Sequence record: KJ190158
Source of the DNA: Escherichia phage FFH2
Strand: one strand, 5' to 3'
Length of the DNA: 64,000 nucleotides
A program made the position numbers and the translations under genes. Below the pieces are notes generated by a model, which was not told where the DNA came from, did no database searches, and was given only the letters and a program-made list of their open reading frames with translations. Within the stretch, counting starts at the first letter, position 1. The number at the start of each line of letters is the position of its first letter. This document shows, piece by piece, positions 29,373 to 46,194 of this stretch.

Positions 29373-30823
29373 CACACAATTAGCTGCCCGGCTAAAGTGC
29401 TGGAAGCACCTATAACACATCTTTCAACTAAATTTCCTACCACCACAATCACTTACCTCCCACACATGACTGTTTGCTTGTTTAGTGAGCAGTCATGCCT
29501 TGACATTCTTGCCTATCCTGATAAAATTAAGTTCTTCTCTTTTCTTTTACCGAGTAATTCGGGTTTTCTGTTCTCTTCGGTTTGAAGGGGTATAGAGATA
29601 CACCTGAGTGAACAGGGTGAACAACCGAACATTTGGCTATGGCATTAGCATGGCGAAGCGGACGGGTGACGAAAGAGGGGCCGGAGGACACCAGTCACTG
29701 CCATATGATATATGGGTGATAACCTGAAGAGTCTGAATAAGTGTTTAAGTACCAGTCAGAGGAAAAGGTGAATGGTAGCCGAAGGGGGAGGGGGGTTTCT
29801 TGTATCTTTAATTTGTATATTATGTATACACTTGTAAACCAATCTCATCTGAATTTGTTTACCACACAAAGTGGATAGGGACAAATATTACCTATTAAAC
29901 TTGAATTATTTATAGAAATACCACAACACCACTTAAGTCTTTGATTTTACACACAAATCCTACAGATATTCACCCTCCATATTTAACATACCTGTAACAT
30001 ATTCCATACCCTACCTGACCGATCAATTCACCCAACTACATCCCCATATTTTCCCTGTCTGTACTACCCCTGCCCCGCCGGGAGTCCCGTCATATCTGGC
30101 TTTCCAGCAAATATCACACCCACAAATATCATTGCCTGAAGAGGGTTTCATCCCATAATACATGCCTTACCTGAAGAGCGCTTCATACACCACGTAAATT
30201 TTTTAATTGACCCCCTCCCCGCCGCCGGAGAGGTTGGCTTTTCCCACACAGACCTGAAGAGTCAGCCAGAAATATCTGAACAGGTCCAGCTATGCCACGA
30301 TTTTGTGCTTGTCCTACAGGAGTGCCTCCCTGTCAGGAGCCGGTAGCGACTGGAGTGCTGCCAGGCGGACGAAATGGGAATCATTCTCATTCTTATAACA
30401 ATTCTCAAATATCGAGGCAGTGAGGCAAATTAATAGGTGAGGCCGTTCACACAATGGCACAACATTTGCAACCTATCTTGTGGGAGTGAATGAGAATACC
30501 TATCATTGTGAGAATAGTTATCATTACGGGCAATTTAACATAATACCCATTATGCGCACCACTGGCGATCCATACAGGGATTGATAACATGGGTTACTGT
30601 TTACACACATAACAATTATATTTCTTACTATTTGTGTGGGATATAGTTAGCAGCCGATAGATTAGATATTGACCTGTAGACTTCCAACCGTCCAGACGTC
30701 TAAACGCCCACACAACAAGGGTTATACATACACAACTGAATGTAAACAGGGCCGCAAAAATGCTACCATACAAGCTTGTAAATTTTTCATGCAGCACTTG
30801 ACAAAGAGGAGGAAAACTTGTCT

Positions 30824-30894
30824 GACACTTTAGACACAATAGTGACATAATATGACATAATGGTGACACTGAACATAATTGACATGCCTGACTG
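30824..30894. repeat. helically phased array of TGACA pentamers (about 8 copies at ~10-11 bp spacing)
   Basis: TGACA/AGACA at 30824, 30833, 30844, 30854, 30865, 30881, 30890 (plus 30800) in an ORF-free region. Confidence 0.6.
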
Positions 30895-30928
30895 TTTACA
30901 TAGCTAACTATTCATACAGAAATGATAA

Positions 30929-31161
30929 GCCATGCCATTCGTTTGCATGATAATAATTAACTTGTTTACAATAGATGACATAATATAAAAGCAGGGCAAC
31001 TATTAGAAGATCTATAGTTGCCTTGCTTGTTATGTCATGATTAACTAAATACAAGGCAACTATGATCTGATTAATAGTTTGCAGACAAACTATCACGGGG
31101 GTGATGGTTACTGCTTTTATATTATGTCGCGACTCCGTCGCGCCATGCCATTCGTTTGCAT
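30929..31161. repeat. nested repeat structure: 20-bp direct repeats flanking 18-bp inverted repeats that enclose caactat inverted iterons
   Basis: gccatgccattcgtttgcat occurs at 30929-48 and 31142-61; gacataatataaaagcag at 30977-94 pairs with ctgcttttatattatgtc at 31111-28; ggcaactat..atagttgcc at 30995-31022. Confidence 0.6.
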
Positions 31162-31774
31162 AGTTGCCTTATTGTTACAGATAAAATAATTGTATTGTTA
31201 ATTATTTCTTATCTTTCTCTTAGTCATCTAATGATTCCAGTCAGTATAGTAATGTACAGTAAACATTAGACGACTAAAGATTTCTCTGTTTATTATAACT
31301 TACCGTGACAATTTCAGGCTGTTTACGAAAAATGTTGACACCTGGGCCGATTTATGTTATGCAGTTTACACGAATAATTATTTTATGCAGGTATTGACTA
31401 TTCCGTTATTCTATGGTTGGAATAAATACTTAGCAGACTATAGAATGGTGAGCGTACGTAAATTCTGAGATCTGGCGGCTATAGTTATACTCGATTTTTC
31501 ACGTAGAACACGCTTTTGTTAGTGTGTAAGTGTATGACTTATAAAGATTTTTAGTTGTTGACAAGATATTGAAGATGTGCATCAGGTTAAATTTTGTGCA
31601 ATAGCGGCATTACGTGCAATTTTGAGAGAGAAAACGGGTAAAAATGGCCTTGCTATCACACAATGAAAAATTATGCAATAGTTATTTTACATGTATGTTT
31701 GTACAGTGTGTGGGATTGATGGCTAGTCAATTATTCCACTTGCCAGGCTGGGCCGTTTGTGGTAGGAGAAATAC

Positions 31775-31808
31775 AGACAAAAAGAAAGGGGCCTTTTAAA
31801 GCCCCTGA
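31775..31808 (-). terminator. rho-independent terminator ending the leftward early cluster
   Basis: On the - strand: aggggctttaaaaggcccct followed by ttctttttgtc. Confidence 0.65.
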
Positions 31809-32714: not shown

Positions 32715-32987
32715 TTACTTATGGCGGCAGAATTCAAGCGTTTTTAATTGATAATCTTCCTCAGCCTGGAGTACTACCGCCTCGATCATTTCGTTGGCAT
32801 TGTTAAAGCCATAACCTTTAGCGAACTCATCCGCGCCACCTTCGTGATCATGTTCTGCGTTCATCGCTTCCACAAAATGGAATTCCAAATTGTTGAGGTA
32901 GGGGCTTGATGTTCCGTCCTCTTTTTCGATGAGATCCCAGATAGCATTAAAACGTGATTCGACTTCTTGATTAATCCAGCTTGACAT
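32715..32987 (-). CDS. hypothetical acidic protein (90 aa)
   Basis: ORF; promoter TTGACA-17-TAACAT at 33042-33070 and 5' hairpin gggcacttttgccc. Confidence 0.45.
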   Translation of the reverse strand: MSSWINQEVESRFNAIWDLIEKEDGTSSPYLNNLEFHFVEAMNAEHDHEGGADEFAKGYGFNNANEMIEAVVLQAEEDYQLKTLEFCRHK

Positions 32988-33198
32988 AATGTTTTCCTCT
33001 CTTCTGGTTGTTGTGTGGGCACTTTTGCCCCTTCAAGATAAATGTTACCCCACCCCCTGGCAGATGTCAACGGTTTTTATAGTTCTTATATGACAGGCAG
33101 GCCCGGTGATTGTCTCCCCCCGTCGCCAGGTGCCTGCCGTTGAATAAGTATAACAAAAAACAGGACCATTGCAAGCCCTGTTTTCTAGTCAATAAGGA

Positions 33199-36366: not shown

Positions 36367-36403
36367 TCCTTGTTAACTGCGTGGTCTTTTAACAGGGTTT
36401 AAA

Positions 36404-36448
36404 TTTACTTTATTGATGGCCCTGAAGTCAAGGCCATCTAAAAATAAA
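36404..36448 (-). repeat. conserved 45-bp intergenic element, copy 1 (hairpin GATGGCC..GGCCATC with TTGACT in loop, then CAATAAAGTAAA)
   Basis: Near-identical copies at 40146-40190 and 40764-40810. On the - strand it reads as -35 TTGAC(T/G) plus 18 bp plus TAAA(C/T)T. Confidence 0.6.
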
Positions 36449-36450
36449 TT

Positions 36451-36651
36451 TTACAGGCCTACAATCTCTTTGATTCGTTTAACCGCCGCCTCAGCGCCTT
36501 GGGGGTAAAAATTATGGTAACCAATCACGCGAGTGATACTAATCGCCGTTTGATGATCTTCATAGTCGCCCTTGAAGATTTCTTGACCGTCAATCAGCAC
36601 GGCAATTTTTTCTTCTTTTTTGAAGTTAATAACGCGGATATTGTTGCTCAT
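36451..36651 (-). CDS. hypothetical protein (66 aa)
   Basis: ORF; promoter and ggggaaacatcccc hairpin upstream. Confidence 0.4.
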   Translation of the reverse strand: MSNNIRVINFKKEEKIAVLIDGQEIFKGDYEDHQTAISITRVIGYHNFYPQGAEAAVKRIKEIVGL

Positions 36652-39437: not shown

Positions 39438-39798
39438 AAACGCCCCCTTTACTGATCTCAATATTTGCCTGAATCGCCCGGATACGACGTTTTATAGTCT
39501 CCTGATCCTTGCAATCATATCCCCAAAAGTCTACGATTTTTGCGCCGCCAGCCTTTAAGCGGTATAATGTTTCTTGCATCTTGTAAGCTGGGATCGGTCT
39601 CGGTGTTACCTGGTCCCCTTTCCCATCCTTGTACTTGATAATGTAGTCTTCGTTGTCGTTGAATACCCAAAATGGGTATTCTGTAAGCGCGTTGCTCTCT
39701 TTTTCGTTTTTGGATTGGATCTTGTTTACAATTAAAGCCGTAGCAATAGCGCCAATAATAAAACTTGCCCCGCTGATCATGTTACTTTCTCCTTTCAT
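39427..39798 (-). CDS. hypothetical protein with N-terminal TM helix (123 aa)
   Basis: ISGASFIIGAIATALIV hydrophobic segment. Confidence 0.45.
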   Translation of the reverse strand: MKGESNMISGASFIIGAIATALIVNKIQSKNEKESNALTEYPFWVFNDNEDYIIKYKDGKGDQVTPRPIPAYKMQETLYRLKAGGAKIVDFWGYDCKDQETIKRRIRAIQANIEISKGGVYEN

Positions 39799-39856
39799 TG
39801 TGCTGATAAACTATCTTTATAGATGGCCCTGCCACCAGGACCACCGAAAAAACAGT

Positions 39857-40102
39857 TTATTTGACGATACCGACAAAACAGATCCCGCCTTCCCCTATAT
39901 AGGCAATATCGGTAATTTTATAATTTGTCAAGATCCGCGTGTTCAGATCATTAATAAAATCGGTCATCGCGTTGGTGTAGTTGTCTTCCGTGTCTAAGGC
40001 ATAATCCCAGGTGTAAACCTTTTTACGTCCGAAGCCTTTTACCATGATACGGGCGCTTTTGGTGTTGGTAGGGGCATAATATTTGGTAATTAGTGCGGCC
40101 AT
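39857..40102 (-). CDS. hypothetical protein (81 aa)
   Basis: ORF; conserved 45-bp element copy 2 (40146-40190) upstream. Confidence 0.45.
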   Translation of the reverse strand: MAALITKYYAPTNTKSARIMVKGFGRKKVYTWDYALDTEDNYTNAMTDFINDLNTRILTNYKITDIAYIGEGGICFVGIVK

Positions 40103-40191
40103 TGTTTTAACTCCTCTATATTAGTTCAGTGTTAACAGTGTAAAGTTTACTTTATTGATGGCCCTGGAGTCAAGGCCATCTAAAAATAAAT

Positions 40192-40533
40192 TTACTCGTT
40201 TTCTTCCAGTTCTGCAAGCTCTTCTTTCACTTCTTCAAGCTCTGTCTGTAATTCTTGGTATTCTTCATCGTCCTCAATATCCAGGCTGTCGATGTAGTCG
40301 CTAAATCCGCAGCGGTAAGCGATAGGATCTAGCTCCTTGAGGATACGCGACGGAAGAAAAGAAATGTTTCCGATCATAATTTCGCCGTAGATCTCGTCTA
40401 ACCATTCATCATAGTTTTCGTCGTACTTGTCCTCGTCGATTTCAAAGTTATCGATCTTATTCTCAAGGTCTGCGATCTGTTTTTTCAGCGCGGCGATCTG
40501 CATGGCTTTTTCTGCGGCGGTCATAGTAGTCAT
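40192..40533 (-). CDS. highly acidic coiled-coil protein (113 aa); possible DNA mimic
   Basis: About 30% D/E (ELEEVKEELAELEENE, DEDKYDENYDEW). Size and charge resemble Ocr-type anti-restriction proteins. Promoter TTGACA-16-TATACT and 5' hairpin gggaaaacttccc upstream. Confidence 0.45.
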   Translation of the reverse strand: MTTMTAAEKAMQIAALKKQIADLENKIDNFEIDEDKYDENYDEWLDEIYGEIMIGNISFLPSRILKELDPIAYRCGFSDYIDSLDIEDDEEYQELQTELEEVKEELAELEENE

Positions 40534-40810
40534 GGTGTTTTCTCCTTTTGTGTGTTCTGGGAAGTTTTCCCGTTTATGTGTTTAGTATACTGATCTAAGT
40601 TAGCTTGTCAATTAAAAGTTTAAGAAAAATTTTGCGATACCGTTGGCGCTACCCATCAACATTTGCGCCAGGATGTAACCAATGATGCAAACGATAATAG
40701 TTACCTTTGTGTGCTGGCGTGTAGTACTCATCTTCAAGCCTCCTTTTAGCTTAACTGGGATTAGTTTACTTTATTGATGGCCCTGGCGTCAAGACCATCT
40801 AAAAATAAAC

Positions 40811-41206
40811 TTAGTAAGTTTTCAGTACTTTCCCGTCCAATCTGTCAAGCTGGATCTCGATAGCTGCAGAAAACCTATTATAAACCACATCGCCCATGGA
40901 GTCCAGCCAATCTATGACGTTATACACCTGCTCTTTATTCTTGCAAGTCCGGATCCGTTTCATTACGTAAGACGGATCAATATTAGTGCTCTCGTTGTTG
41001 TGGTCATGCGCCTGGCCTGCTGCATTAGTTATAGATTTTACAACCACCTGAAAGGGCTTTAAGGTGCCTTTTGCGTTCATCTCACGCGCTTTTGCGGCGC
41101 GGTTGTTATATGTTACACAACGGCGGCAAATGTTGACCAAATGCATATCAATAATTTTTTCATCGTTTGCCAGTTCGTTCATGATGCGGCGTACGTTCTT
41201 ATTCAT
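40811..41206 (-). CDS. hypothetical protein (131 aa)
   Basis: ORF; promoter TTGACA-16-TAAACT and hairpin ggcgggaatgtttcccgcc upstream. A 35-aa hydrophobic peptide ORF (40624-40731) lies downstream. Confidence 0.45.
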   Translation of the reverse strand: MNKNVRRIMNELANDEKIIDMHLVNICRRCVTYNNRAAKAREMNAKGTLKPFQVVVKSITNAAGQAHDHNNESTNIDPSYVMKRIRTCKNKEQVYNVIDWLDSMGDVVYNRFSAAIEIQLDRLDGKVLKTY

Positions 41207-41292
41207 GATCTTTTTCCTTTGTGTTGGCGGGAAACATTCCCGCCTTTTGTGCCCAGTTTACTTTAATTTTGCAGCGTGTCAATAATTTTTTT

Positions 41293-41691
41293 TTATTCGT
41301 GGGCGCATGTCACAATGTGCTTTTTATACCCCAGGTGGGCAGCAAGTGCTGACAAAAACTCATCTTCATAGATCCAGCCGTTGGCAGTGATCCCCATAGC
41401 ATTTAACGCGCTTTCAAGTGCTGCATTGGCCTTATCATAACCGTGACCGCTCGCCTTGCCACCAGTATAACCGTACTTGTTGTTCTTGCTGTCGTGCATC
41501 CAAAAGACGCAATAATGAGTGTTACCGCTGGAGGCGGCATAGTACCGGATCTCCGCTACTTCGTGCAAATTATTATCATCGTCCAGGCCAACCAGATTAT
41601 AAGCCTTGTAAAATCCACGATCACGGCGGCAGTTCTTGACATCAGAAAAAGAGAAGTCGGCATTGTCAAAATTAAAGGTTGTGGTTTTCAT
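41293..41691 (-). CDS. hypothetical protein (132 aa)
   Basis: ORF. Confidence 0.45.
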   Translation of the reverse strand: MKTTTFNFDNADFSFSDVKNCRRDRGFYKAYNLVGLDDDNNLHEVAEIRYYAASSGNTHYCVFWMHDSKNNKYGYTGGKASGHGYDKANAALESALNAMGITANGWIYEDEFLSALAAHLGYKKHIVTCAHE

Positions 41692-41755
41692 GATTTTATC
41701 CTCTTAGTGTCTTTTGTGATTTCAGTATATTTTGTGTCGGGGCGTATGTCAATAC

Positions 41756-41953
41756 TTATTTTTTATTAAACCAGTGATTGATCTGACCTTTTGTCAGGGC
41801 GCAACGATTAAGTTGGTGCCGGGTATAGCTCTGACCGCGACGGAATTTATAAAGGCCTTGCCCGTTGTTGATGGTTACGTCCACCTGGCAAACCATTTGA
41901 TCGGTGACCACCTGGCGAGCGTTGCGACGTACTTTGATTCCGTAGGCGTTCAT
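41756..41953 (-). CDS. hypothetical basic protein (65 aa)
   Basis: ORF. A ~58-aa ORF (42041-42217) lies upstream. Confidence 0.35.
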   Translation of the reverse strand: MNAYGIKVRRNARQVVTDQMVCQVDVTINNGQGLYKFRRGQSYTRHQLNRCALTKGQINHWFNKK

Positions 41954-42374
41954 GATTTTTTATCCTCTCTGTTAATTAGTGTGGTGTTGTTCACCTTGCG
42001 AGGATAAGAATAACAAGAACTGTCCGAGCTGTCAACTATTAGTTAAAATTATTTTTTGGGCGGAATTCTCCAGCCGCCGCCCCTGCCAGGTTAACCATCA
42101 TTTTTTCGTACTCTTCTTTATATTCCAACGCTCCCGCTATAGCCTTTTCAACCAGGGCGATAGCCTCAGCGTCATTAATAGCTACATTTTCCAGGGGGAT
42201 CATATTACCTTTCATTTTTGTACCTCCTCTTCAATTGTTACCTATCCTATAGCATAGGCCCACCAGGTTTACAAGCCTTCATTCTCTCCTACCTGGTCAG
42301 TTAGGTCCTGCCAGGCTGGCCCCACTAGGTTGCAGCGGTTAGTGCATCAGGTTAGAAAAATTTTTTGAAAAGTG

Positions 42375-42403
42375 TTGACAGCGGCCCCGCCAGGTGGCAC
42401 AAT
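42375..42403 (+). promoter_or_regulatory. promoter-like site (TTGACA-17-CACAAT), module copy B
   Basis: Consensus -35 with a weak -10. Followed by structured element B (42421-42456) and Fur-box-like palindrome 42475-42496. Confidence 0.35.
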
Positions 42404-42518
42404 ATACCTATCGAAAGGACGGCAGGCACCGGTGACGGGGGAGACAACCACCGGGGATGGGCGCTGCATAAAATGAGAACGGTTATCATTATCATTTAAA
42501 AATTTATGCAAAAAATCC

Positions 42519-42546
42519 TTGCTTTCTTTGTCCTGTGTGATACTAT
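42519..42546 (+). promoter_or_regulatory. promoter-like site (TTGCTT-16-TACTAT), module copy C
   Basis: Followed by element C (42571-42595) and Fur-box-like palindrome gagaATGATTATCATTc (42611-42627). Confidence 0.4.
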
Positions 42547-42739
42547 AATAACAAGCCGGGGCAACAGGGGCCGGGAGACAATCACCGGGCCTGCCCGTTA
42601 TTCTGCAAACGAGAATGATTATCATTCAAAATTCTAAATGAGAACTCCTCGCATTTAATAAATTTAATTAGCACGCTAATTACACTCCGTAACAATTTAC
42701 TATAAAATAGTATCCACTAAAATATTCCCATATAGAAAT

Positions 42740-43200
42740 TTTAAAAATCCATTTCTGAAAACGAAAAATCGATTTCGTCCCTAAAAATTTCAGGCCTAGA
42801 TCCGGAACGATTTCCAGAAAATCCGATTCAGAAAACGAAAAACAGATCGAGTACTGAGAAATTTATCGAGAAAAATTTTCAGAAAATCCAAGCCCTGAAA
42901 TGAAAAGTAGATCGAGTACCTGGAAAGCTGCACCGCAACTTCAAGATAGTGGTTAGATTGTTACCATAGAAGGTCAAGGGTAAGTGGAGGAAGTTCTAGT
43001 AGAGGGAGGTTAGCATGTGTGGGAAATCTATAATGGTGGCCTGGAATATAGTGCAAACGATAGGATGAGTTATTCAGCTTGTCGCGCCTACTCTGAAAAA
43101 TCCATTTTAGTTTTCGATCCATTTTCTGATTTTCTAAGAATTTTAAAATATCCGGCCCGGTGAAATATCAAAAGGAGGAAATCCATTTTAGAAATCCCCC
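42740..43200. repeat. iteron-like direct repeats (gaaaacgaaaaa; agatcgagtac; aaatccatttt)
   Basis: gaaaacgaaaaa at 42757 and 42832; agatcgagtac at 42844 and 42909; aaatccatttt three times. ORF-free. Confidence 0.5.
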
Positions 43201-43231
43201 TTATACTTGATATGCCAGGAATTTTCAAGTA

Positions 43232-43561
43232 TCAGCTGTCTTTGTTTTTAGGTTTGTACATGCGCAGAGGTATGGTCTTTGTAACATTCCATTTCCTCAA
43301 CCCTTCCCAGCTCCAGTTGTGGGCGTGATACCCGGTTATGCATGCACTGCTGGCGTGATCATAAGCATAAGAGAACGCTATGTGCACCAGGTGGGGCCAG
43401 TCCTTCCACGGCTGTGGACCGTAAGCCTTTCTCCAACACCGACACAAACTAATTGTCTCAAGAATAGGGAGAATAACAATTCCATATACCACCACCAGAA
43501 TGGTCAGTGCAATGATTGTCAGGAACACATACCCTGCAGTTGAAATGATGATCTCTGTCAT
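43232..43561 (-). CDS. membrane protein (2 N-terminal TM helices)
   Basis: IIISTAGYVFLTIIALTILVVVYGIVILPIL. Confidence 0.45.
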   Translation of the reverse strand: MTEIIISTAGYVFLTIIALTILVVVYGIVILPILETISLCRCWRKAYGPQPWKDWPHLVHIAFSYAYDHASSACITGYHAHNWSWEGLRKWNVTKTIPLRMYKPKNKDS

Positions 43562-43761
43562 TTGTCGTCCCCTTTCTTACGAATATAGATGTGAGAGCCT
43601 GCCTGTATATAAATTTCTCGACCATCCTCTGCAAAGATATGAAATACACGATCACCTTCGTACTCGATACGAGATATCTTCATAATGGTCTTTCCACCTG
43701 GGATACGGATCTCGTCCCCCACAGCGATGTTCCATGCAGATTTAAGCTTAAACATCTGCAC
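43558..43761 (-). CDS. hypothetical protein (67 aa)
   Basis: ORF coupled. Confidence 0.4.
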   Translation of the reverse strand: MQMFKLKSAWNIAVGDEIRIPGGKTIMKISRIEYEGDRVFHIFAEDGREIYIQAGSHIYIRKKGDDK

Positions 43762-43993
43762 CCTCCTTTGGGAACTTGAACTCTGGCATAGCCATATACG
43801 CTACAACAGGGTTGTGATCAAAGTAGAACTGACCGTTAATTATCCCGGTTTTGTCCACATAGTTACCAGATCCTGCAAGAACAACCTCGCAAGCTCCGAA
43901 ATCCACATTGCCATTCTCATCTGCCATGGCTACAATATACTTTCCTAGAGGCATGTTTTTAACGCCGTCTACAAATGTCCACCCTTTGTTCAT
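43748..43993 (-). CDS. hypothetical protein (81 aa)
   Basis: ORF. Confidence 0.4.
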   Translation of the reverse strand: MNKGWTFVDGVKNMPLGKYIVAMADENGNVDFGACEVVLAGSGNYVDKTGIINGQFYFDHNPVVAYMAMPEFKFPKEGADV

Positions 43994-44014
43994 AACTTTA
44001 TCTCCTGGACTTTC

Positions 44015-44347
44015 TTAAGGTAACCAGTAAACAATTTCGCCTTTCAGTTCCATGTCGTTACCGACATAGATTTTCCAGCCATCCATTTTAGCCACTGCAG
44101 GAGTGAAGTCCGAAGAACCACTAACCTCTTTCCAAGTCCCGTAGTCAGGTTGCCAGATATAGAATCCACCTTCCTTGTCCCATGCTCCATATACCACATC
44201 GAGCAGGTTGCCCATTGCAACAATAGTAGGCCGTGGGAACAATGCATCTACAGATGCGCCACAATATCTAGTATCTTTTAAATTGCACTCCCAAAAGATG
44301 TCTGCCAGTGTGGCGGCGATAGCTTTACGTCTTTCTAATGTTACCAT
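44015..44347 (-). CDS. hypothetical protein (110 aa)
   Basis: ORF. Confidence 0.4.
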   Translation of the reverse strand: MVTLERRKAIAATLADIFWECNLKDTRYCGASVDALFPRPTIVAMGNLLDVVYGAWDKEGGFYIWQPDYGTWKEVSGSSDFTPAVAKMDGWKIYVGNDMELKGEIVYWLP

Positions 44348-44354
44348 ATCATAC

Positions 44355-44546
44355 TCACTTGTTGTTGATAAGTTCTAAAACTTTCTGTCTTACTTTGTCA
44401 AGGTCTGTGGATTCAAAAACTGTACGATATCCCCAACTTTGCCCATAGGAGTGACTGCAATCCCCGTAGCACCATTGCTCAATTTGATAGTATTCAAGGA
44501 ACGGGTGCTGTCTAACTATGATACCATCCCGGTTAAAAATTACCAT
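44355..44546 (-). CDS. hypothetical protein (63 aa)
   Basis: ORF. Confidence 0.35.
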   Translation of the reverse strand: MVIFNRDGIIVRQHPFLEYYQIEQWCYGDCSHSYGQSWGYRTVFESTDLDKVRQKVLELINNK

Positions 44547-44609
44547 AATACATCACTCTCTGTTAGTTTATGCATATATTATACACTGCAGTTTTCAGAT
44601 GTCAATCTT

Positions 44610-44861
44610 TTACAGGTTACTCCAGTATAATCGGCATTTACATTTTGGGCAATAAGGTTCTTTTATGTAATAACCATCAGTCTTTGGAACACTTTTTGGT
44701 GCAGTTTTAAGATTGTACCTGGTAAAACATCGGAAGCAGGTTACCTCTCCCACCTGTTGATCGTTGATCCACTCACCAGAGTAAAGCTCTTTCTTGTTTC
44801 TCATAATTCTCTCCCAAATCCTCTGCAATCTTATACCAAAATCTCCAGCCAGAAAGCACAC
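44610..44861 (-). CDS. hypothetical zinc-ribbon protein (83 aa)
   Basis: C..C ... CPKCKC motifs. Confidence 0.4.
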   Translation of the reverse strand: MCFLAGDFGIRLQRIWERIMRNKKELYSGEWINDQQVGEVTCFRCFTRYNLKTAPKSVPKTDGYYIKEPYCPKCKCRLYWSNL

Positions 44862-45054
44862 GGGAACACTTTGAGGATTGAATCTTTACTTGGCTCGGAA
44901 GTTCTTTTTCCGTATGGTAGGTAGAAATACCCTCCTGCAGACTCTAACACAGCCCCTTCGGTTGTATCTATCACAGCCAGAATTAAGATTTTAGTCTCCA
45001 TAGTGCTCCCTCTCTCAATCGTTGTGGTGACTATACCATCTCAAAAACCAGCTG

Positions 45055-45594
45055 TCAACACTTTTTGTACTCCACCACGATAATATCCATATCAAAAGTG
45101 GCAAGGTTAATAACGTCCTCTACGTGCTCCCACTTCAAACCGCCTATGCCGCACCCGATCTTAGGGATGTAGAATGGTAAAGTCGATCCACTGAATACCT
45201 CATTGACTAGCTCAAAGCCTTTCAGGATTGAGAAATATTCAGCATTAGGTCCTGGGTAGAACTGAGTATACAGATTGATTCCGTAGACAATACCTCTCGG
45301 AGATAAGTGCTCCCATCGGGAGAACGCACCCAGTTTACTTAGGCAACCATGTCTGGTCTCTTTGTCAGCTGCCAATGCTTGAGGGAACTCACGGGCAATC
45401 TGTTTTGCTATCCCCTTGCCCATTGTGTGGAAGCAGTTACAACCGTGGATCAGGTGACCAGCACCACTCTTAAAAAGGGAGATTAAATCTCCCTCTACAG
45501 TATCAATAATCACGGTATGCCAGCTCCTCTTCCACAATTTCAAAAAACTCATCCCAACCTTGTGGCATATTTGAGTTACCGAAGTGGCTTTCAT
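45055..45594 (-). CDS. macro-domain protein (ADP-ribose binding/hydrolase-like)
   Basis: HLIHGCNCFHTMGKGIAKQI matches the macro-domain core (NAAN..GGGV.GAI-like). A second G-rich loop IGCGIGGL follows. Confidence 0.6.
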   Translation of the reverse strand: MKATSVTQICHKVGMSFLKLWKRSWHTVIIDTVEGDLISLFKSGAGHLIHGCNCFHTMGKGIAKQIAREFPQALAADKETRHGCLSKLGAFSRWEHLSPRGIVYGINLYTQFYPGPNAEYFSILKGFELVNEVFSGSTLPFYIPKIGCGIGGLKWEHVEDVINLATFDMDIIVVEYKKC

Positions 45595-45928
45595 AGTAAA
45601 GGTTCTTACCGCTAGGAAGGTAGAAATCTGTTACCTCATAAAATCCACAATCGTCGCACTCACCTTCTTCAAACTTGGCCTTAACCTTAATACCGAGGAA
45701 GGTGAAAAGTTTATGGACATCTTCAGTTTCGAACTCCCAGGGAATGTTGTTTTCCGCATCGGTGTAGAACTGGATCAGCAGACCATTGTCCAGTTTACCA
45801 AAATACTCTGTGAAGTAACTTCCTTCCCAGAAATCTTTATGACAAATAATATCCATGCGTTTGCCCATAATAATGGTGTGAGCGTTTTGGGCATCGTCAC
45901 GAATCAGTTTTGGCATTTCATAGATCAT
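45503..45928 (-). CDS. hypothetical protein (141 aa)
   Basis: ORF overlapping the macro-domain gene start. Confidence 0.4.
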   Translation of the reverse strand: MIYEMPKLIRDDAQNAHTIIMGKRMDIICHKDFWEGSYFTEYFGKLDNGLLIQFYTDAENNIPWEFETEDVHKLFTFLGIKVKAKFEEGECDDCGFYEVTDFYLPSGKNLYYESHFGNSNMPQGWDEFFEIVEEELAYRDY

Positions 45929-45996
45929 CTTAGTTCTCCGGGTTCAACAGGTGGTGGCGCTACAGGAAGATCATAAAACATAGCTATCACAGTCTC

Positions 45997-46194
45997 TTAC
46001 ACAGGAATTGCTTCAAACAGGCCGTTATCTATACCGTCCTTCAGATAGAGATTATATTCTATGTCGGTATCTGTGTAAAGGGCAGCATCCAGCATTCTAT
46101 CTGTGAGTCCATCCATTGGGTGGAGAAACCACCACCCACGCCAGTCAAAGTAACAGCCTGGTGCATCTTCTCTTACACGGATTCGATAAATCAT
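45997..46194 (-). CDS. hypothetical protein (65 aa)
   Basis: ORF. Confidence 0.35.
   Translation of the reverse strand: MIYRIRVREDAPGCYFDWRGWWFLHPMDGLTDRMLDAALYTDTDIEYNLYLKDGIDNGLFEAIPV

Follow-up and report, generated by a model that had tools for sequence, protein, structure and literature searches.

A gap without genes in the 64,000-nucleotide (nt) stretch of Escherichia phage FFH2 analysed here (record KJ190158; the whole stretch is hereafter called the window) contains a tandem duplication of a promoter and its leader, whose two units, B and C, are each followed by a palindrome resembling the operators of the iron-responsive repressor Fur. A third, box-less copy, unit A, heads a leftward early operon. 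The explanation that best accounts for the data as a whole, and that we hold with slightly better than even confidence, is that these palindromes are genuine Fur-family operators, bound by Fe2+-Fur dimers of the E. coli host and acting on rightward transcription. In particular, binding of the boxes by host Fur appears quite likely from their sequence, a regulatory role is plausible, and the direction and mechanism of regulation are speculative. Fur boxes themselves are textbook elements; the new part is the presence of conserved, predicted Fur operators in control regions and termini of virulent phages. The source phage is an rV5-like Vequintavirus, that is, a strictly lytic E. coli myophage, as window positions 40000-46000 match Vequintavirus genomes (EdH4, JES2013, inoa and others) along their entire length at 95% identity. 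The gap measures about 750 nt (42216-42960) and lies inside a block of minus-strand early genes. The features discussed below are collected in Table 1.

Fur-type boxes in two non-coding regions

Fur boxes were defined by the 19-base-pair (bp) consensus GATAATGATAATCATTATC or by the 7-1-7 inverted repeat TGATAATnATTATCA. The palindromes of the window form one family with the consensus AATGAGAATnATTCTCATT, which is the 7-1-7 motif with one symmetric T-to-G change. Their likeness to Fur boxes, already remarked on in the initial annotation, is borne out: the B box GAGAACGGTTATCATTATC (42475-42493) agrees with the Fur consensus at 16 of 19 positions and the C box GAGAATGATTATCATTCAA (42611-42629) at 15 of 19, with GAATGATTATCATTC as a perfect 7-1-7 inverted repeat. 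Boxes with at most four mismatches from the family consensus are found in the 64 kb only at 30373, 30489, 30507, 42472, 42608 and 42637, hence in two non-coding regions.

These sites were also scored with a palindromic 19-bp matrix, refined from the published consensus on 13 intergenic regions of Fur-repressed operons of E. coli K-12 (fepA-fes, fepD-entS, fepB-entC, fhuA, cirA, tonB, exbB, fecI, fiu, ryhB, fur, fhuE and feoA). The six best scores in the window are those of B, C and the boxes of a terminal repeat (20.0, 16.1, 15.4, 14.0, 13.9 and 13.5 bits), to be compared with 6.2-17.3 bits (mean 11.6) for host sites each left out of training. Matches of at least 14 bits number three, against 0.3 expected from shuffles, and in 500 local shuffles of 42216-42960 neither the observed number nor the observed maximum was ever attained. 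In other words, the scores lie far above those of shuffled AT-rich sequence, the very comparison on which the initial annotation had staked its proposal. Apart from the 13 training regions, 64 kb of K-12 DNA holds just two matches of at least 12 bits. One lies next to the training region upstream of fur, at the 5′ end of uof, and we take it to be the known fur autoregulatory site.

The B array ends 19 nt before the -35 of the second promoter of the module, P2, and is followed by an A-tract. Its main site (20.0 bits) has 16 of 19 bases in common with the best site upstream of K-12 fecI, and the array is the only block conserved in all seven aligned Vequintavirus sequences across its stretch. 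Overlapping matches phased by 6 bp occur at 42469/42475/42481, 42605/42611 and 30370/30376, as they do at K-12 Fur-regulated promoters, a phasing consistent with the binding of several dimers. Downstream of the C box, the palindrome at 42637-42655 is probably a decayed box; at this place relatives carry an intact second box (KNP2), with four boxes in Mt1B1_P17. A lone matrix match, GCAAACGATAATAGTTACC (40687-40705, 13.4 bits), lies between two minus-strand early genes and is the only one above 13 bits outside both large non-coding regions.

The initial annotation had also noticed three more boxes at 30.4-30.5 kb, which are confirmed, and had placed them at a junction, which turns out to be the left edge of a direct terminal repeat. 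Specifically, record MT884009.2 starts at window base 30364, the same position as the edge of the repeat annotated in phage Gotham, so that a physical genome end probably lies here, inside a 2.4-kb gene-free region (29373-31800). For phage KPP-1, a 514-bp direct terminal repeat has been derived from read coverage and PhageTerm (PMC9862379); elsewhere, circular permutation has been described for Vequintavirus genomes (PMC8407724), and the packaging mode is therefore disputed. All three boxes fall within the first 165 bp of the repeat. The first begins 9 nt inside its left edge and has 14 consecutive bases in common with the K-12 ryhB site, and a weak possible promoter (TTGTGG-17-TATCAT), read by eye and absent from the promoter scan list, overlaps the second. 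In phage Bas54, the "important" intergenic region free of transposons is a region of about 2 kb between oppositely transcribed blocks (bioRxiv 10.1101/2025.11.20.689424), taken to correspond to the 29.4-31.8 kb gap that holds the terminal repeat. Just past the right edge of the repeat, at 30820-30990, repeated TGACATAAT motifs cluster, and several promoter-like sites were called there, including CTGACA-18-CATAAT and ATGACA-16-CATAAT.

The same palindrome marks iron-related loci in bacteria. The exact sequence AATGAGAATnATTCTCATT occurs at more than 120 bacterial loci, about 80% of them outside long open reading frames (ORFs), against roughly ten expected by chance on a rough estimate. Among 150 flanking proteins there are 11 Plug/TonB-dependent receptors, 9 iron-type solute-binding proteins, 7 FUR and 5 ZnuA proteins, 4 each of FeoA, FeoB and ECF sigma factors, and 3 FTR1. 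It also occurs in at least 120 IMG/VR contigs (L027-L143), where, among the matches listed, 119 of 128 sites (93%) lie outside long ORFs and the neighbours are for the most part small ORFans that lack iron-related domains; two or three tandem copies occur in some contigs (for example L096, with three, 30 bp apart). Fur-type boxes may thus be common in the intergenic DNA of uncultured phages.

Half-site comparison further indicates what kind of element the boxes are. In 37 distinct phage boxes the symmetric positions deviate one-sidedly 76 times and in a compensatory manner 3 times, and one variable position holds only G or T on the left and C or A on the right, namely the phage base or the Fur-consensus base. 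Because the deviations are not compensatory and the variable position is restricted in this way, the boxes read as sites for a dimeric protein on DNA and not as RNA hairpins. As to the protein, a tblastn search with E. coli Fur returned homologues in unrelated records only (Listeria, Staphylococcus, Acinetobacter and others) and none from the Vequintavirinae. A phage-encoded Fur was consequently rejected, and host Fur is the likely, and simplest, binder. Of the earlier proposal of an operator family for a Fur-like repressor, host or phage-encoded, the Fur-type operators are thus retained, on the strength of the matrix and of the iron-gene neighbours, and the phage-encoded repressor is regarded as unlikely.

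Promoter-leader units and their conservation

That B and C are homologous units, each behind a promoter-like site, with a core of which a third copy lies near 33.1 kb, had been claimed from the outset and holds throughout. Promoters P1 and P2 are both present. The core GGGAGACAANCACCGGG occurs three times in the window (42439-42455 and 42573-42589 on the plus strand, 33102-33118 on the minus strand), against 0.03 expected from shuffles. Units A, B and C are significantly homologous, with local alignment scores of 26 for B/C, 31 for A/B and 26 for A/C, and shuffle means of 8.2-8.3 (standard deviation 1.4-1.6, largest values 13-16); the homology of unit C begins near 42550, earlier than the 42571 first given. 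The flanking arms are distributed as had been proposed, both being found in unit A (GGCAGGC...GCCTGCC), only GGCAGGC (42421-42427) in B and only GCCTGCC (42590-42596) in C. Unit B is like unit A in its 5′ half and like the B unit of a more remote relative (L024) in its 3′ half; given this mosaic, the copies appear to exchange sequence.

P1 has the make-up of a strong sigma-70 promoter, including an extended -10; its predicted start is near 42410, and its combination of UP-like tract and TTGACA is found again at 34913-39 (minus strand), 36745-62 and 38739-63 (minus strand) (repeat families D10, I3, I7 and I14). The sequence GGCCCCRCYAGGTKGC occurs twice (0.05 expected), as the P1 spacer (42383-42398) and 65 nt upstream of it (42318-42333); the stretch 42250-42400 is rich in CCWGG motifs, and in other genera the promoter spacers of the module are filled by similar GC-rich dyads. 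P2, with a predicted start near 42551-42556, is missing from the promoter scan list because its 19-nt spacer exceeds the 16-18 nt that the scan covered. An alternative reading of it is an extended -10, TGtGATACT, at 42536-44. A promoter of the form TTGnnn ... TATnnT stands at its place in Seunavirus, Mydovirus, Phapecoctavirus and others. Unit A sits upstream of a minus-strand gene (32715-32987) and has no Fur box, with no matrix match of at least 10 bits nearby.

Across genera, the C unit with its box is the only part of the gap that can be aligned (59-83 nt at 77-88% identity, always in unannotated DNA), namely in Seunavirus, Mydovirus, Phapecoctavirus and phages of Klebsiella, Salmonella, Serratia, Erwinia, Pectobacterium and Cronobacter. 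CACCG-N29-GAGAAT keeps the same spacing in each of 21 distinct units, which come from at least five genera. These include a paralogous unit on the opposite strand of Mydovirus genomes (L278, which is KNP2, and L279, L281 and L282), in which the loop is GGAGGAAAGCCACCGG instead of GGAGTACAAAACACCGG and the order promoter, leader, Fur box is maintained, the box AATGAGAATTACTCTCAAC lying at the same spacing; duplication and movement therefore affect the module as one piece. The corresponding boxes of other genera form perfect 9-1-9 palindromes, such as AATGAGAATGATTCTCATT in PVP-SE1, and in PVP-SE1 and KNP2 a box ends 16-18 nt before TTGACA or TTGACT, with an A-tract in between. When scanned with the E. 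coli matrix, 43 kb of the Klebsiella phage KPP-1 gave nine matches of at least 12 bits (1.2 expected) and 50 kb of the Salmonella phage PVP-SE1 gave eight (0.9 expected), of which 9/9 and 7/8, respectively, lie either in the large non-coding region, within or beside the terminal repeat, or in the C unit. The window sequence at 30.2-30.7 kb aligns to Escherichia phages only, although boxes recur in the relatives; their position is therefore conserved and the sequence around them turns over.

Three observations concern the DNA that precedes the C unit elsewhere. In Seunavirus, Phapecoctavirus and Mydovirus its promoter is preceded by a direct repeat, GTAAA-N5-GTAAA (L002 2435-2460, L003 2478-2503, L004 2413-2438), which matches the consensus for the envelope-stress regulator CpxR and would be a possible second host-regulator site; the window lacks it, having unit B in its place. 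Directly upstream of the C unit in other genera stands a conserved non-coding segment of about 95 nt (GCCACCCCACGGCG.AAAGGCGGGGCTAAC...GGTGGATCGCCGGTAG) with its own promoter and no Rfam match (L002 2290-2430, L003 2340-2475, L004 2275-2410). A small plus-strand ORF (PVP-SE1 gp201, 60 amino acids (aa)) precedes this segment; the window lacks both.

The shared element of units A, B and C behaves as a 5′ leader, because it exists in three copies, each directly after a promoter. Its invariant part is primary sequence, GAG(T)ACAAnCACCG followed by TGC..G..ATTC. A known RNA family or riboswitch was rejected: Rfam covariance models gave no match at gathering thresholds in the window and five related loci, and only chance-level matches at E-values up to 10. 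The RNAalifold consensus structure of the leader has zero pairs. Single-sequence folds all show an outer stem enclosing the core, with minimum free energy z-scores from -0.1 to -3.6, about half of them weaker than -1, i.e. no stabler than shuffles. In a hand-built two-helix model, pairing in the outer helix reaches 87.5% of cells, compared with 31-49% for slid partners, yet its covariation does not exceed that of shuffles, and the inner helix is paired in just 48% of cells; a conserved leader fold thus lacks statistical support. A small hairpin abutting GAGAC seems by eye to covary and is not relied upon here. A scan of 42000-43300 found no terminator-like site. The initial proposal that the boxes control a leader or non-coding RNA is at most plausible, as the boxes lie off P1 and P2 and neither a terminator, an RNA family nor a supported fold defines such an RNA.

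Table 1. Positions of the predicted elements in the window, grouped by region
Feature	Coordinates	Strand	Description
Early promoter P1	42354..42403	+	A/T-rich UP-like tract (AGAAAAATTTTTTGAAAAGTG), then TTGACA-17-CACAAT (42375-42403) with upstream TG; 10/12 matches
Unit B leader	42419..42468	+	GGCAGGC arm (42421-27) and core GGGAGACAACCACCGGG (42439-55)
B Fur-box array	42469..42499		Three overlapping 19-mers phased by 6 bp; 12.25, 19.99 and 10.07 bits
Promoter P2	42519..42549	+	TTGCTT (42519-24), 19-nt spacer, TATAAT (42544-49); read from sequence
Unit C leader	42553..42604	+	Core GGGAGACAATCACCGGG (42573-89) and GCCTGCC arm (42590-96); part conserved across genera
C Fur box	42605..42629		9-1-9 palindrome AACGAGAATGATTATCATT (42608-26); two 19-mer matches 6 bp apart, 16.1 and 15.4 bits
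Degenerate second palindrome	42637..42655		AATGAGAACTCCTCGCATT; 4 mismatches to family consensus; Fur matrix -1.8 and 3.2 bits
AT-rich trough	42660..42725		Conserved palindrome TAATTAGCacGCTAATTA (42665-82) and weak promoter-like sites
Three iteron-like direct repeats	42726..42926		About 62 nt each, spaced 74 and 65 nt; GAAAACGAAAAAcAGATCGAGTAC; repeat family D2
Unit A	33090..33174	-	Promoter TTGCAA-16-TATACT (33174-33147); leader 33140-33090 with both arms and core
Direct terminal repeat	30364..30822		By homology: the 459-bp repeat_region ending the record of phage Gotham maps here
Terminal-repeat Fur box 1	30370..30394		AATGGGAATCATTCTCATT (30373-91); two 19-mer matches, 13.9 and 13.5 bits
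Terminal-repeat Fur boxes 2 and 3, tandem	30489..30528		AATGAGAATACCTATCATT (30489-30507, 10.3 bits) and TGAGAATAGTTATCATT (30507-30525, 14.0 bits); repeat family D12

Possible roles of the boxes

If the boxes are indeed operators of host Fur, three parts would make up the mobile module: an early promoter of the sigma-70 type, a G-rich, conserved 5′ leader (about 50 nt; GAGACAAnCACCG ... CTGCC) and, behind it at a constant distance, a Fur box. In its duplicated B/C form the module would drive rightward non-coding transcription into the AT-rich stretch and the iteron-like repeats. In iron-replete cells, Fur occupancy would most likely dampen this transcription, and two routes can be envisaged. 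Fur on a box might occlude the UP element and the -35 of the next promoter, the B box lying 19 nt before the P2 -35; alternatively, or in addition, it might form a roadblock some 60-75 nt downstream of each start. Either effect would be lifted when iron is scarce, which would tie an early non-coding, possibly origin-activating, function to the iron status of the host.

A number of points weigh against this explanation. The sites are Fur operators predicted from sequence. The boxes overlap neither the -35 nor the -10 of P1 and P2, unlike in the usual geometry of Fur repression: relative to the P1 start, the centre of the B box lies at about +75, and relative to the P2 start the B and C boxes are centred at about -72 and +62, respectively. 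Promoters on the minus strand that would overlap the boxes were looked for by eye in the window and in PVP-SE1 and none was convincing, the sole candidate having a 15-nt spacer. Within the window, some 100 nt separate the C box from the nearest following promoter-like site. Neither unit A nor the C unit of the relative L024 has a box, and the leader can therefore work without one. The phage consensus has G where the classical E. coli box has T (TGAGAAT versus TGATAAT); the TGAGAAT variant is also present at several K-12 sites (fecI, ryhB, fepB-entC, feoA and exbB). That one box lies just 9 nt from the genome end is a hint of a non-transcriptional role. Moreover, the text of a genome-wide host-gene screen for the V5-like phage LL12 mentions neither fur nor iron.

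The alternative that survives best is that the module belongs to a replication origin, in which transcripts started at the tandem promoters would run into the AT-rich stretch and the iterons, as activators or primers, and the Fur boxes would be accessory or architectural. As the principal explanation we consider this unlikely, and it can coexist with the operator reading. The layout is suggestive. Two promoters in the same direction, followed by a leader whose G-richness favours a stable RNA-DNA hybrid, point into a trough of 24-29% GC (within 42600-42800) and then into the array of three repeats of about 62 nt; direct repeats beside an AT-rich region are what is expected of an iteron origin, and the array is a candidate replication origin or protein-binding array. 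The trough holds 9/12 promoter-like sites (42679-42723) and a palindrome, TAATTAGCacGCTAATTA, that is conserved in all Vequintavirus loci, including L009 and L024. Other genera retain the order of promoter(s), box and iterons, and KNP2 and PVP-SE1 have repeats of a comparable kind (cgatcgagaacc, in 3-4 copies; L004 2600-2860, L002 2610-2700). Downstream on the plus strand there is no coding gene, only a 53-aa ORF (42961-43122) for which no PHROG family matched. The rV5 genome paper, for its part, marks only a "non-coding" box and could not locate the origin (PMC3606486). On the other hand, the transposon-free region of Bas54 is the one of about 2 kb and not the 42216-42960 gap (bioRxiv 10.1101/2025.11.20.689424), unit A places the same leader ahead of ordinary genes, and the origin is a candidate predicted from its layout. 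A DnaA-box-like TATCCAC at 42711-17 was dropped, as it is not conserved in relatives.

A rather improbable alternative is that the boxes act as a decoy or sponge, titrating host Fur so as to de-repress iron uptake and supply iron for phage ribonucleotide reductases. The principle of Fur titration (FURTA) is established. There are six strong sites per genome, or nine with both terminal repeats, multiplied by replication; their scores equal or exceed those of the best host sites; they cluster in non-coding DNA and off core promoters; and their number varies from 1 to 4 per unit among relatives with position kept. Relatives also encode aerobic and anaerobic ribonucleotide reductases (PVP-SE1 annotation). 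Nevertheless, a sponge needs neither a site 9 nt from the genome end nor a fixed register, and the fixed spacing to the leader core together with the recurrent placement 16-19 nt before a -35 argues for a local, position-dependent role.

Still less probable is that a phage-encoded, non-Fur DNA-binding protein uses the boxes as an early repressor or switch, their likeness to Fur sites being mimicry or coincidence. Most neighbouring early genes have no assigned function, at one symmetric position the phage consensus favours G/C over the T/A of the classical E. coli site, and the exact palindrome is frequent in intergenic DNA of uncultured phages beside small ORFans. However, the same 19-mer is an operator beside iron genes and fur in many bacterial phyla, and a matrix trained on E. 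coli sites alone ranks the boxes first. The motif is also kept across phages of several enterobacterial genera, as fits a conserved host protein, and Fur is highly conserved across enterobacteria. Furthermore, no candidate phage protein accompanies the boxes; the gap lacks the small plus-strand ORF seen in other genera.

Finally, that the palindromes are RNA hairpins at the 3′ end of short leader RNAs, or chance AT-rich palindromes, is hardly credible: they do lie inside the predicted P1 and P2 transcripts and the perfect copy could form an A-U-rich stem of 8-9 bp, but hairpins and terminators are disfavoured by the one-sided half-site deviations, the absence of a U-tract and the empty terminator scan, and chance by the shuffles, which never reproduce the scores, and by the conservation of the boxes across genera.

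Genomic surroundings, known counterparts and implications

The annotated genes around the gap are all small, on the minus strand and of unassigned function; the ten neighbours tested match only PHROGs without assigned function, and none has a Pfam match. No plus-strand gene lies 3′ of the boxes. The only ORFs annotated within the gap, in some relatives, are short, and one of them spans the promoters. A search for tRNA genes found none. Between minus-strand early genes there are four copies of a 63-nt repeat (36390-36452, 39797-39859, 40132-40194 and 40751-40813), which holds a GC-rich hairpin (GATGGCCCTGGAGTCAAGGCCATC) between A/T tracts and is probably a terminator and promoter combined. About 17 GenBank records, MG0656xx ("Campylobacter phage C7, C9, A142 ...", labelled C. 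jejuni), are 95-97% identical to E. coli Vequintavirus across the region, and their host labels look doubtful.

Compared with known systems, the phage boxes are like those of E. coli fecI, ryhB and fepB-entC in their inverted repeat, their 6-bp phasing and their scores, which fall in or above the host range; they differ in lying on a virulent genome, off core promoters, at a fixed distance 3′ of a leader or at a terminus, and with no iron-related gene downstream. A host Fur box on phage DNA, plugged into the iron regulon of the host, is also a property of certain temperate-phage genes. For instance, stx1 of Shiga-toxin phages is Fur-controlled. Likewise, sitABCD with a Fur box is carried on lambdoid prophages (PMC6969025). 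Those boxes control cargo of the lysogen, whereas the ones described here lie in core non-coding control regions conserved across genera. With small RNAs of the RyhB type, the module has in common a sigma-70 promoter, a short, here predicted, non-coding transcript and a Fur box; in RyhB, however, the box overlaps the promoter and there is an intrinsic terminator, whereas here the box is at about +62, a terminator was not found by the scan and Rfam gave no match.

Transcription-activated origins offer a further parallel. The T7 primary origin has tandem promoters and an AT-rich region, and T4 oriF and oriG as well as ColE1 RNA II are transcription-activated. The resemblance lies in tandem promoters that lead into an AT-rich stretch and then repeats, and in a G-rich leader RNA; such origins are not known to include Fur boxes, and the phage promoters considered here are of the host sigma-70 type and predicted from sequence. 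HK022 putL and putR, in turn, are promoter-proximal, cis-acting leader RNAs, similar in that a short element exists in several copies, each just after an early promoter; they have no known sequence similarity to the leader described here, whose conserved fold lacks statistical support.

In the searchable literature, nothing relevant was found on conserved Fur operators in virulent phages or on Vequintavirinae transcriptomes, and phage Fur boxes are described only ahead of cargo genes of temperate phages. We tentatively entertain, without leaning towards it, the broader notion that Vequintavirinae, and possibly many uncultured phages, have built host Fur into their early circuitry and genome termini, as an iron gate or as a sponge; if true, this would represent a previously undescribed class of regulatory coupling between phage and host. 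In any event, the best Fur-type sites of the 64 kb lie in two large regions without genes, in a lytic phage family that has uses in therapy and biocontrol, and they give a concrete handle on non-coding regions that had lacked an explanation. If Fur does bind them, the outcome of infection may depend on iron in the gut or serum, with relevance to phage therapy.

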